A stretch of 64,000 nt of DNA from an uncultured Lachnospiraceae bacterium (GTDB lineage: Bacteria; Bacillota; Clostridia; Lachnospirales; Lachnospiraceae). The translations under genes and the position numbers were made by a program. The notes beneath the pieces are model-generated. The model saw only the letters and a list, made by a program, of their open reading frames with translations. It ran no database searches and was not told the origin of the DNA. Position 1 is the stretch's first letter, and each line of letters begins with the position of its first letter. Positions 3,811 to 57,640 of this stretch are shown in pieces. Location of the stretch: positions 146,906-210,905 of the forward strand of contig CARHSH010000001.1 in assembly GCA_948989975.1 (NCBI GenBank). The letters run 5' to 3'.

Positions 3811-5031
3811 CTGTATCGAAAAAATACAGCCCCGTTTCCCGCTAGGCTTCGACCGGACAAAAACAGCGCCGCTTTGCCTTTCCATAATTTCTCTGGCAAG
3901 ATAAAGCCCGATGCCGGACCCTTCCACCATAGAAACCGCTTTCCCGCGGTAAAACCGTTTAAAAATTTTATGATACTCCGATTTTGGAATCCCGATTCCT
4001 TCGTCCTCAACGTCGATCCGGACAAAATTCGTCAGGCATTCCACATGAATGCAGATCTTCGTGTCTGCGCCGCTATATTTAATCGCATTGTCAATAAGAT
4101 TAACAAGCGTTTCCGTCGTCCACTTCCTATCCTGTCTTACAATAACAGGATATTTCGGCGAATCCTCAGACATTTCAATCAAAATGCCCTTTGCCGCCGC
4201 CTTCCCGTACAGCCTGTTGACGGCGTCCAAAATAGTTTCATTCAGATCACAAGGCTCCATATGAAGCTCGATCATGCCTTTTTCCATACGGGAAACATTA
4301 ACAAGCGCCTTCGTCAGATTTTCAAGCCCATTCAGTTGATATAGGCAGTTTTCATAAAATTCGTCCTCCTCCTCTTGCGTAAGATCTTCTGATGCAAGCA
4401 ATTCCATACTAGTTTTCAAAGCGGCGACAGGCGTTTTCAACTGATGGGAAATATCCGTCACAAGCGCCTTCGTTGTCTCCTTCTCCCGGATCAAACATTC
4501 CCGATCCGTCTGAATCTGTTCCCATAAAGAAAGAATGCGATCCTTCAAAACCTCGTCAAAATGCGTAAACTCAAACTCCGGCCGGAGAGAATCCGTCGTT
4601 TGAAGCTTTCGGAACACAGATTCCAACTCCATAAAAATAACCGCATTCCCCTTTTCCCTCCGACGCCAAATAGCGGCAAAAGCCGCAAACAGCGCCAAAT
4701 CCAAACAAACAGACACAATCAGTACGCCACGCCTAGCCTCCGAAAACTTCCTATCCCAAACAGTGTCCGTTTCCGAATCATACCCATAAAAACCCATCAG
4801 ACGTTCTCCCGACAAAAGCCAATCCGCATCCGGCGCCTCCTTCTGCCAGCGTAAAAGCCCGCTACCCGCTTCATTGCTACCCGCAATGCCCATAATCACC
4901 AGTTCCGTTTCCTGATAACTGCGTTTCAGCTCCCTCAAAACCCAAAAATCCAAAAACGCCGTAAACAAAACAAATATAATGCCAAACAAAAACACAAAAC
5001 TCACATTTTTTGCATGACTTCGCAATCCCAT
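3799..5031 (-). CDS. Sensor histidine kinase (two TM helices, HisKA + HATPase_c)
   Basis: H-box ISHQLKTPV, N-box LIDNAIKYS, G-boxes DEGIGI and GSGIGL. Overlaps the upstream response-regulator gene by 31 nt. Confidence 0.85.
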   Translation of the reverse strand: MGLRSHAKNVSFVFLFGIIFVLFTAFLDFWVLRELKRSYQETELVIMGIAGSNEAGSGLLRWQKEAPDADWLLSGERLMGFYGYDSETDTVWDRKFSEARRGVLIVSVCLDLALFAAFAAIWRRREKGNAVIFMELESVFRKLQTTDSLRPEFEFTHFDEVLKDRILSLWEQIQTDRECLIREKETTKALVTDISHQLKTPVAALKTSMELLASEDLTQEEEDEFYENCLYQLNGLENLTKALVNVSRMEKGMIELHMEPCDLNETILDAVNRLYGKAAAKGILIEMSEDSPKYPVIVRQDRKWTTETLVNLIDNAIKYSGADTKICIHVECLTNFVRIDVEDEGIGIPKSEYHKIFKRFYRGKAVSMVEGSGIGLYLAREIMERQSGAVFVRSKPSGKRGCIFSIQLPK

Positions 5032-5720
5032 ACATACCCCATTCCCCGGACATTCCGAATCATCCGGTTATCATCACTATCCAAAATTTTCGCTCTCAGC
5101 CGCCGGATATTCACCGCAACCGTATTATCATCAACAAAATGCCCATCTGCATCAAAAATCTGTTCAAGAATCTGCGTTTTCGACAAAATCTGCCTAGGAT
5201 AATTCAAAAACAACTGTAACAGCCGATACTCATTTTTCGTCAGCGTCACAGGCGCATGATCCACCAAAAGCCGCATTTCATTTGGATAATAAGTCAGCTT
5301 CCCAGAAACAAAAACAGTCTGCCCGTTCCCCGCTCCAGAATCCGAACGCATATTCAAACGTTTAAACACCGAATGCACCTTCGACATCAACACAGCAAGG
5401 CTAAACGGTTTCGTCACATAATCATCTGCGCCCGTATCATAACCCATCACAATATCAACTTCCGAATCCATCGCAGTCAAAAAAATAAACCGCACATCAT
5501 CATGCAAATCCTCACGTAAATACCTGCAAAACGAAATCCCGCTTCCGTCCGTTAAAGTAATATCACATAACACAAGCCCAATTTCATGCGAACGAAACAA
5601 CCGCTTACCCTCCGCCACCGAGCCACAAGAAAACACCCGATACCCTTCCTTTTCCAATTTAAAACAGATCCCCCTCCGCAAACTCTCCTCATCTTCCAAC
5701 AACAAAATAGTATCCATCAA
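5001..5720 (-). CDS. OmpR-family response regulator
   Basis: Receiver domain (LLLEDEESL..., D in LVLCDITL) plus a winged-helix C-terminus (LTKNEYRLLQLFLNYPRQILSKTQI...MGYVW). Confidence 0.9.
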   Translation of the reverse strand: MMDTILLLEDEESLRRGICFKLEKEGYRVFSCGSVAEGKRLFRSHEIGLVLCDITLTDGSGISFCRYLREDLHDDVRFIFLTAMDSEVDIVMGYDTGADDYVTKPFSLAVLMSKVHSVFKRLNMRSDSGAGNGQTVFVSGKLTYYPNEMRLLVDHAPVTLTKNEYRLLQLFLNYPRQILSKTQILEQIFDADGHFVDDNTVAVNIRRLRAKILDSDDNRMIRNVRGMGYVWDCEVMQKM

Positions 5721-5739
5721 AACCTCCTTTCAAAAGAAT

Positions 5740-6000
5740 CCCATCATAAAAAAGCATTTACAAACAGAAACAAAATAACCCGCCAAAAAAGAAACACATA
5801 CTTACAGAATGCGCAAACCTCCCAAAACATATCAATTCCAGCCCAAATTCCAGCTTTAAAAACAGCAAAAGCGAAACAAACCAATCAATGAAACCAACAA
5901 AAGCGAAACAAGGTAACAAAACAGCAAAAGTAAAACAAGTCAATATAGAACCCACAACACACACATAGTTATAACATAAAAAAACAAAGTACATTTTAGC
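5740..6000. repeat. Strongly strand-asymmetric A/C-rich low-complexity tract with repeated aaaagcgaaacaa motifs
   Basis: Seen directly: the plus strand is almost devoid of G and T over about 260 bp, with three copies of aaaagcgaaacaa-like units. The only ORF here (5758..6021, minus) is a hydrophobic compositional artefact. Confidence 0.5.
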
Positions 6001-6103
6001 CTGCGAATTAGCAGATAACATTCACAGCCAACCGTATAGCCATACACCCTTAAGCGCCACCGATATAATATAAAAAAGTAAATTCAGCCAAAGCGCCGCA
6101 AAA

Positions 6104-6325
6104 AAGCCGTCTATGCTAGCGGGGCATTGTGATGGGATTTAGGGATTCTTATGTGTTCCTGCAACATACAGCAATGCCCTGCCATGGACGGCAGGGCAAA
6201 CTGCAGCCACGCCATGGAAGGCGTGTCTGCAGTGGTTGCGTCCGAAACCAAAAAGCAGAAGGAACACATTAGAACCCCTTAATCCCAGAACACAGCCCCG
6301 CTAGCATAGACGGCTCTTTTTTGCG
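6104..6325. other. Roughly 220-nt nested long hairpin / imperfect palindrome (candidate structured ncRNA, MITE-like element or bidirectional terminator)
   Basis: The outer 20-bp perfect stem gccgtctatgctagcggggc (6109..6128) pairs with 6298..6317, flanked by an A6 run and a T6 run. A second imperfect stem of about 34 bp continues inward (6132..6165 with 6264..6297). Two internal hairpins lie at ccctgccatggacggcaggg and gcaaactgcagccacgcc / ggcgtgtctgcagtggttgc. Confidence 0.5.
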
Positions 6326-6379
6326 TATTTTGCCACCCCAAAATCCTACCACATTTTTTATATTAATTCAAATTAGCAG

Positions 6380-6408
6380 TTGACATTTATTTCCTACTGT
6401 ATTATACT
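6380..6408 (+). promoter_or_regulatory. Sigma-A-type promoter of the acpP-fab operon (TTGACA-17-TATACT)
   Basis: TTGACA at 6380..6385, a 17-bp spacer, and TATACT at 6403..6408, about 75 bp upstream of the acpP ATG. Confidence 0.55.
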
Positions 6409-6413
6409 TTGCC

Positions 6414-6453
6414 TGTCAAATAATTTGACAATCAAAACATTTGAACTTCAAAT
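6414..6453. promoter_or_regulatory. Two adjacent perfect palindromes just downstream of the -10: TGTCAAATAATTTGACA (6414..6430) and ATTTGAACTTCAAAT (6439..6453); candidate FabT-type (MarR) operator
   Basis: The palindromes are seen directly. Their half-sites resemble the streptococcal FabT operator family (TTTGA...TCAAA). A MarR-family gene closes the operon. Confidence 0.4.
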
Positions 6454-6482: not shown

Positions 6483-6716
6483 ATGTTAGAGAAATTAAAA
6501 ACAATCATTGCGGAGCAGTTAAGCATCAATGAGGAAGAAATCAGCGCAGAAAGTAATTTCAAAGATGATTTAGGAGCAGATTCCTTAGATTTATTTGAAT
6601 TAGTCATGAGTTTAGAAGAAGAATATGGCGTTGAGATCCCGTCAGAAGATTTAGAAAAAATCGCTACAGTAAATGATGTTATGGAATATATGAAAGCTAA
6701 AGGCGTGGAAGATTAA
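6483..6716 (+). CDS. acpP: Acyl carrier protein
   Basis: 77 aa; the DSLD phosphopantetheine attachment motif ([17 protein letters not shown]); RBS AAAGGAGA. Confidence 0.92.
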
Positions 6717-57406: not shown

Positions 57407-57419
57407 TTGAGAAACAAAA

Positions 57420-57640
57420 GAAAGAACATTCCGGTGTCAGGACAATGTTGTCATTGGTACTGGTGAAAAGGGAAACAGGTGGAAGTCCTGTACGAACTCG
57501 TCACCGTGATTAGGGAGTGAAGGCTGATAAATCACTGGGAAACTGGGAAGATAGCCTAAGCGTGGATCTTTGAGTCGGGAGACCTGCCGGAATGTGTACA
57601 GAAACGATAGTTTCAGGCCACGAGTGATTGGTTGTACATG
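57420..57640 (+). ncRNA. Cobalamin (B12) riboswitch
   Basis: B12-box AGTCGGGAGACCTGCC at 57573..57588; the upstream conserved core GGTGAAAAGGGAAACAGGTGGAAGTCC; located in the 5' leader of a B12-uptake-like operon. Confidence 0.75.

Follow-up and report, generated by a model that had tools for sequence, protein, structure and literature searches.

Weinberg et al. (2010, PMC2864571) classed the TwoAYGGAY motif (Rfam family RF01731) as a probable RNA, not cis-regulatory, and recorded it from metagenomes of the human gut, from Clostridiales and from gamma-proteobacteria. According to the supplement of that paper, its closing stem P1 is 'often very large', with stems of about 24 bp and 2 mismatches. 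Gardner and Eldai (2015, PMC4333381) noted that both loops fit the CsrA binding motif and proposed, without experiments, a CsrA-binding small RNA (sRNA) in Clostridia. The structure was refined with R-scape for Rfam 15, and papers of 2025-26 still describe the motif as unexplored, the wording in 2025 being 'relatively unexplored'. The nested hairpin discussed here lies in a stretch of 64,000 nucleotides from an uncultured Lachnospiraceae bacterium (contig CARHSH010000001.1), which we call the window and whose positions are used throughout. It is a full-length member of the already catalogued TwoAYGGAY family. We tentatively read it as a small structured RNA with protein-binding loops, with a palindromic DNA repeat as the main competing explanation.

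The assignment to the family comes from the Rfam scan, which matches positions 6127-6293 of the plus strand to RF01731 with 137.2 bits (gathering score 43, E = 1.3e-26). The match covers model positions 1-168 of 168 without truncation, is found on the plus strand only, and is the single TwoAYGGAY copy in the window. Naming this copy is routine annotation, immediate from the scan, and matters because TwoAYGGAY is still an orphan motif. A first-pass annotation, made from the letters alone, had described a nested hairpin of roughly 220 nt in this place and had recommended folding and a covariance-model search to check it. Every feature that it described is present, in an element of 229 nt (6097-6325) whose outer stem of 20 perfect pairs encloses an inner stem and two hairpins. 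The 20-mer GCCGTCTATGCTAGCGGGGC occurs only twice in the window, at 6106-6125 and, as an exact reverse complement, at 6295-6314 (0.02 matches expected by chance), and the A-run (A6, 6100-6105) and T-run (T6, 6317-6322) carry the pairing out to 6097-6325. Taken as a whole, the inverted repeat has arms of 61 nt each (6100-6160 and 6260-6320) that are 87% complementary. The sequence CCATGG is present in both inner hairpins (6175-6198 and 6200-6233), as had been claimed. The plus strand folds with -145.7 kcal/mol, compared with -70.6 +/- 5.0 kcal/mol for shuffled sequences (z = -15.2), and the minus strand with -149.4 kcal/mol (z = -16.1). For either strand, 0 of 200 shuffles were as good.

The fold of the family is under selection, because across 63 copies 93% of the cells hold standard pairs, compared with 73.6% in shuffles (0 of 500 attained 93%) and about 40% in slid registers, and because 34 of the 46 pairs have changed on both sides. 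In the outer stem, the pairs at each position are of several types in 13 independent copies of the subfamily that we call type A (see below). When orthologous copies are compared, a pair is kept in 50 double changes and broken in 23, single changes being the commonest class (177). The strand evidence is mixed overall. In the enclosing stem, the Rfam strand carries 251 non-canonical pairs (118 U.U, 133 G.A or A.G) versus 115 for the opposite-strand equivalents, a count that is dominated by conserved positions. Some hairpin-1 stems contain tandem G.A pairs, which would be C.U on the other strand. Non-canonical pairs tend to favour a fold of the Rfam strand. Two simpler accounts of the element were rejected on these data. 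A chance palindrome or a plain terminator is ruled out by the folding z-scores, the Rfam match and the covariation. As the first-pass annotation had held, no coding potential is evident either: the overlapping open reading frames (ORFs) are only 42-52 aa long and unsupported (no protein homology search was made with them), and the family-wide compensatory pairing favours a folded structure over a coding one.

Beyond the Rfam model, every copy of the family is a giant hairpin, with a median of about 255 nt (229 nt for the window copy, about 450 nt for the longest). The core alignment separates two subfamilies, and the window copy shares the Roseburia-type core. In Roseburia-type genomes, the arms are alike between copies (0.75-0.82 identity). 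In type A (Agathobacter, Lachnobacterium), copies of the same genome have a core identity of 0.71-0.80, but an arm identity of just 0.53, the level of unrelated flanks. The own arms of each copy are complementary (median 0.82, minimum 0.62, over 40 nt past the Rfam model in all copies). The core is conserved in sequence and asymmetric, and the stalk is free to vary in sequence with pairing kept. One copy (locus L043, 5400-6100) has exceptional arms, with about 170 aligned nt that are 93% complementary, and reaches about 450 nt in all. In another (L110, 1-300, metagenome OFGF01000470), the 30 nt between two GCCATGGACGGC loop repeats have been lost, and hairpins 1 and 2 are fused.

Short motifs recur just outside the arms. 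At unrelated loci, the arm is preceded by TTCAGCCACAGCGTAAG in type-A copies and by CCAGCCAAAACCGTAG in Roseburia-type copies. The left-flank consensus TTCAGCCA(C/A)AGCG(TAAG), which corresponds to window positions 6083-6095, is conserved across the subfamilies, and the right-flank consensus is CGTAT..TTTGCC (6323-6335 in the window). The end motifs GTA(A)G and CGTA precede the left arm and follow the right arm, respectively. Most copies have CGTAG or GTAAG immediately next to the left arm, and many have GTA at both ends, but the window copy shares neither property. Most type-A copies also have A/T-rich, -10-like hexamers 0-13 nt upstream of the left-flank motif.

For the census of the family, a two-loop pattern was scanned over one genome per species, and the loci found (515 kb) were then scanned with Rfam. 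Among the matches listed, there are at least 80 loci in at least 12 assemblies, and those with a named taxon belong to the Lachnospiraceae (Roseburia, Agathobacter, Lachnobacterium, 'Eubacterium sp.' and Lachnospiraceae as such). The Rfam scans of these loci identify at least 105 TwoAYGGAY copies with 54-155 bits, about 20 of which are cut at a contig or locus end. Single assemblies are rich in copies, with at least 21 loci in one Roseburia metagenome-assembled genome (MAG) and at least 16 in strain MGB1. An origin from phages or plasmids is rejected, as blastn finds no match to the element in phage and plasmid collections, and the pattern has no match in IMG/VR. The 118 neighbouring proteins in the fetched loci represent 164 Pfam families, all housekeeping and without functional association, and show no enrichment of transposase, recombinase or motility genes. 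A tie to particular genes, to a transposase or recombinase, or to CsrA/FliW was rejected on the same grounds, and the genes between the spaced pair of copies in L027 are ordinary as well. In Agathobacter loci, another orphan long-hairpin motif, the Clostridiales-1 RNA (RF01699), lies a few kb from TwoAYGGAY (L041, 5971-6095; L057, 6727-6902).

Crude ORF calling around 45 copies places the end of a convergent ORF no more than about 60 nt from the 3' side in 23 of them, and the end of a co-directional ORF equally near to the 5' side in 5. Leaving out orthologues, we count 18 convergent and 4 co-directional cases (binomial p ~0.004). Of the four neighbour configurations, none is seen less often than the divergent layout of the window (6 of 45 copies), which the first-pass annotation had recognized. 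Copies less than 3 kb apart are arranged head-to-head in 21 loci, convergently in 1 and in tandem in none, although these loci are only in part independent. In Roseburia-type close pairs, the two members come from different arm subfamilies, and head-to-head composites including the spacer recur at several loci with 78-88% identity. In one such spacer (L047, 3695-4071), a GC-rich unit of about 41 nt (cgtggagggcctgaggctc..gcggaagcc.ggagaa.gc) occurs about 4 times in tandem.

With some hesitation, and at less than even confidence, we favour the interpretation that TwoAYGGAY is a small, independently transcribed structured RNA, which shows two ANGGA loops to a protein and whose stalk doubles as a bidirectional terminator. 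Its strongest support is that the core is conserved and asymmetric, and that there are rules for its orientation relative to neighbours. The dispersal among genes without functional association and the conserved motif on the 5' flank also fit a unit that acts independently. The plus strand would be transcribed as a unit of about 230-260 nt, starting in the A/T-rich stretch 6064-6077 and stopping at an intrinsic terminator formed by the GC-rich stalk and the U-tract of the T-run 6317-6322. As the A-run mirrors the T-run, the stalk should stop transcripts from the other side too. The folded RNA would offer two ANGGA loops 30 nt apart, a pattern that is recognized by CsrA-type dimeric RNA-binding proteins, and could bind or sequester a CsrA-like or other dimeric protein in trans. 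The double-stranded stalk might make the RNA stable, or be cut during processing by an RNase specific for double strands, such as RNase III. Arm pairing is probably kept in part at the DNA level, by arm-to-arm templated repair or recombination, and such templating would explain occasional flips of the hairpin. TwoAYGGAY is placed in Rfam clan CL00106, which we take to be the Csr/Rsm clan. A tblastn search for CsrA gave no hit in the 777 kb of fetched loci and is uninformative on the presence of csrA. To our knowledge, the protein FliW is the only CsrA antagonist known in Firmicutes. Should TwoAYGGAY bind CsrA, this group would have its first Csr-type antagonist RNA.

Several observations weigh against an RNA gene of this kind. 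The weightiest are the number of copies, the failure to detect a promoter, the even counts of wobble pairs and their mismatch equivalents, and the fact that one strain can do without the core. Sixteen to 21 or more loci in single assemblies are atypical of a sponge sRNA. Consensus scans find no sigma-70-type promoter upstream of the window copy or in two pair spacers, where nothing exceeds the shuffle expectation, and the -10-like hexamers stand at variable distance from the flank motif. G.U pairs and A.C mismatches are about equally frequent (32 versus 30 in the inner stem, 56 versus 69 in the outer stem), so that wobble pairs give no signal for either strand as the RNA strand. In Roseburia-type copies, a U-run comes after the hairpin more often on the opposite strand, and T-runs of 4 or more are found there in 19 of 58 copies, compared with 7 of 58 on the Rfam strand. 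In the species of the window, the element is nearly invariant, with 1 single-nucleotide polymorphism and one orientation among six aligned contigs. One strain, however (L085, 4100-4730, Logan SRR29686982), lacks the whole core. The deletion of 180 nt, equivalent to window 6124-6303, runs between two GCAT microhomologies in the basal part of the stalk and leaves an 11-bp hairpin and T6. Moreover, the core has opposite orientations relative to the flanking motif in two sets of orthologues. In L020, compared with L009, L056 and L057, both flanks are swapped and reverse-complemented (87-98% identity over 320-400 nt), while the 265-nt hairpin aligns in the same orientation (93%). L013 and L048 differ in the same way. 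The GTAAG flank motif travels with the flank and not with the core. Recombination between the arms probably produced these inversions, although assembly ambiguity is possible.

The first-pass annotation had left the nature of the element between a structured small RNA and a miniature inverted-repeat element, and both suggestions have gained ground: the former by the full-length RF01731 match and the compensatory changes across 63 copies, the latter by the many dispersed copies in relatives. It is possible, if in our view somewhat doubtful, that TwoAYGGAY is a selfish or structural palindromic DNA repeat, like REP/REPIN, ERIC, Correia or miniature inverted-repeat transposable elements (MITEs), that spreads via single-stranded hairpins or recombination. 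The core would then be the site for a putative mobilising enzyme, fold and termination would be by-products, and the window copy would have inserted in a permissive spacer between divergent promoters. The number and dispersal of copies agree with this, as do the truncations at contig and locus ends, which are expected of assembly-breaking repeats, the recurrence of head-to-head composites together with their spacer, the short conserved end motifs that flank the arms, and the absence of strand bias among wobble pairs. The microhomology-mediated loss of the core in one strain and the inverted hairpins at two orthologous loci point in the same direction. So does the closest syntenic relative (67% identity of the response regulator), in which fab operon, two-component system and ABC transporter are arranged as in the window. 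The spacer of this relative measures 223 nt and cannot be aligned to that of the window. It retains the acpP promoter and operator, but contains neither the element nor the A/C-rich tract. The element and about 540 nt of spacer were therefore either gained in the lineage of the window or lost in the relative. On the other side, a target-site duplication could not be made out with any clarity, and the window copy does not have one. A precise empty site has no hit in the JGI metagenomes, where the species of the window is not represented. Neither an autonomous partner with the same ends nor a transposase or recombinase occurs among the 118 neighbours or between spaced pairs in the fetched loci, where no RAYT gene was seen either, and the plasmid, phage and IMG/VR collections lack the element. 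The type-A copies, with unrelated arms around a conserved core, are the reverse of decaying MITE copies, and orthologous copies have been kept across species at several loci.

Other explanations start from the opposite strand or from the flipping of the core. The convergent stop codons within about 60 nt (23 of 45 copies) and the excess of opposite-strand T-runs would suit a 3'-end hairpin that terminates or stabilizes the mRNA of a gene reading in, with head-to-head pairs as back-to-back terminators, an arrangement fit for convergent gene pairs. The window copy has its U6 directly after the stem on the minus strand, and after 2 nt on the plus strand, and the core-deleted strain retains a hairpin with a T-run. 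We nevertheless consider it unlikely that this is the function of the family, since a terminator does not need the conserved three-way junction and the strand-specific loops, the type-A copies have no U-tract on the opposite strand, and the U.U and G.A pairs favour the Rfam strand as folded. Neither neighbour in the window reads into the element, and the window copy would have to be idle or a mere insulator. The inversions at orthologous loci, with the GTAAG motif staying with the flank, could also hint at an invertible DNA switch, in which the arms let the core flip, and a fixed outside promoter or flank motif drives either the AYGGAY-loop RNA or its complement in a phase-variable manner. This appears very improbable: the differences in orientation are seen between species only, all six aligned contigs of the window's species agree, the 118 neighbours include no invertase, the strong orientation bias opposes frequent flipping, and ambiguous assembly of MAGs across repeats of 45-50 bp may also account for the pattern. 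A further, decidedly speculative picture, to which we give little credence, is that TwoAYGGAY could be, instead of an ordinary sRNA gene, a recombinationally active palindromic module, in which templating from arm to arm would keep the long copy-specific arms complementary, and the asymmetric core would flip from one orientation to the other. With a fixed flank motif and promoter, a single locus might then produce the AYGGAY-loop RNA or its complement, and the many dispersed copies would act as RNA-level phase switches across Lachnospiraceae chromosomes. The favoured interpretation remains the small structured RNA. The coordinates of the element are given in the table.

Table. Features of the TwoAYGGAY element and its immediate flanks in the window.
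Feature	Position	Strand	Description
TATAAT	6064..6069	+	-10-like hexamer 27 nt 5' of the stalk; has no -35 element and is for this reason not called by the consensus promoter scan
Outermost 12-bp inverted repeat TAATATAAAAAA	6066..6077	.	pairs with 6354-6365 (TTTTTTATATTA), 100% complementary
Left-flank motif TTCAGCCAAAGCG	6083..6095	+	conserved, just outside the stalk; recurs at unrelated loci
Outer stalk, 5' arm	6097..6126	+	P1 extension past the Rfam model; A6 at 6100-6105, perfect 20-mer 6106-6125
TwoAYGGAY core	6127..6293	+	RF01731 model positions 1-168: inner stem, junction, two ANGGA hairpins
Hairpin 1	6175..6198	+	9-bp stem UGCCCUGCC/GGCAGGGCA; loop AUGGAC 6184-6189; stem covaries across the family (helix 4)
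Hairpin 2	6200..6233	+	14-bp stem; loop AUGGAA 6214-6219; covaries across the family (helices 5-6)
Outer stalk, 3' arm	6294..6325	+	perfect 20-mer 6295-6314; T6 run 6317-6322, the would-be terminator U-tract
Right-flank motif GCGTATTTTGCCA	6323..6335	+	similar CGTATATTTTGCC and CGTATTTTTGCC in other copies

Two entries of the table call for comment. The TATAAT hexamer is a possible promoter of the sense transcript, of which its sequence is a weak indication, and with the outermost 12-bp repeat pair, the palindrome may be as long as about 300 nt. Loop 2 of the window copy ends in A instead of the consensus Y, a variant that is also present in L044 and L104-L111.

The element is flanked by the response-regulator gene of a two-component system (5001-5717, minus strand), the listed TTG start of which is one codon too far upstream, and by acpP (6483-6716, plus strand), with the fab operon from 6483 onward. 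The first-pass annotation had remarked that the hairpin has the shape of a bidirectional terminator at a site where none is needed, and this is borne out: stem and U-run fit both strands, and no gene reads in. The fit was read from the sequence, as the terminator scanner cannot score stems with so large a loop. The acpP promoter (6380-6408), 55 nt past the element, is the only promoter that the scans called in the window. It consists of TTGACA, a 17-nt spacing and TATACT, and is followed, within 6380-6436, by the palindrome TTTGCCTGTCAAAT/ATTTGACAATCAAA; the relative L094 keeps it as two TTTGACAGTCAAA sites. The palindrome is probably the operator of a repressor of fatty-acid synthesis of the FabT or FapR kind.

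On the other side, the non-coding region upstream of the response-regulator gene (5720-6083) has an A+C content of at least 0.70, is poor in G, and contains loose repeats such as AAAGCGAAACAAG and AAAGTAAAACAAG. The skew extends over 5549-6083 and includes adjacent coding DNA, and about one third of the family copies have a similar 5' flank. We considered the A/C-rich flank as a part of the element, but it is not clearly linked to it, given that the skew in the window also covers coding DNA. The element lies between the two copies (6006-6037 and 6371-6402) of a 32-nt direct repeat with 75% identity (AATTAGCAG...), the second of which holds the -35 box of acpP. The repeat may be a target duplication, a promoter segment that was duplicated upon insertion, or a product of chance. 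Elsewhere in the window, a cobalamin riboswitch (RF00174, 97 bits) is found at 57415-57605 on the plus strand.

The observations at the family level may be new, and they offer handles on function. They include the dispersed copies in abundant butyrate producers of the gut (Roseburia, Agathobacter), the copy-specific self-complementary stalks, the head-to-head pairs, the hairpin inversion at two orthologous loci, and the natural variants that have lost the core.

Among the known systems, the palindromic repeats REP/BIME-REPIN, ERIC, Correia and RUP resemble TwoAYGGAY in being chromosomal, intergenic, usually just past a stop codon, and multi-copy, and in forming a long hairpin that can terminate transcription. 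A GTAG-like head lies beside the arm in some TwoAYGGAY copies. In contrast to these, TwoAYGGAY is longer (230-330 nt), has an asymmetric, conserved core with a three-way junction, and can have arms that are unique to a copy. It has shown neither a RAYT or transposase partner in the fetched loci, nor a clear target duplication or an empty site. With bidirectional intrinsic terminators, it shares the GC-rich perfect stem between an A-run and a T-run, but the 'loop' is here a conserved structure of 167 nt. A gene reads into the hairpin in most other members of the family, and none does so in the window. Invertons likewise have inverted repeats around a segment, here of about 170 bp, and the two orthologous loci exhibit both orientations, if only between species. 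However, the repeats of TwoAYGGAY are much longer and copy-specific, with no invertase nearby and no promoter inside the segment. The CsrB, RsmY and RsmZ RNAs are similar in having GGA in ANGGA hairpin loops, at a spacing that a CsrA dimer can bridge, in units that are not linked to particular genes. These sponges carry about 4-22 sites and are present in 1-5 copies per genome, whereas TwoAYGGAY has two sites and dozens of copies. The enclosing stem of 60-100 bp has no counterpart in the Csr/Rsm RNAs, and CsrA binding is here a proposal from the loop motif. The window copy compares best with the TwoAYGGAY family itself. It has the two AYGGA(Y) terminal loops and the multistem junction, with a very long P1 as the closing stem, and its origin matches the taxon range (Clostridiales, human gut). 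It departs little from the description of the family: loop 2 reads AUGGAA, and the stalk of 20 perfect pairs, together with its A6 and T6 runs, lies outside the model.

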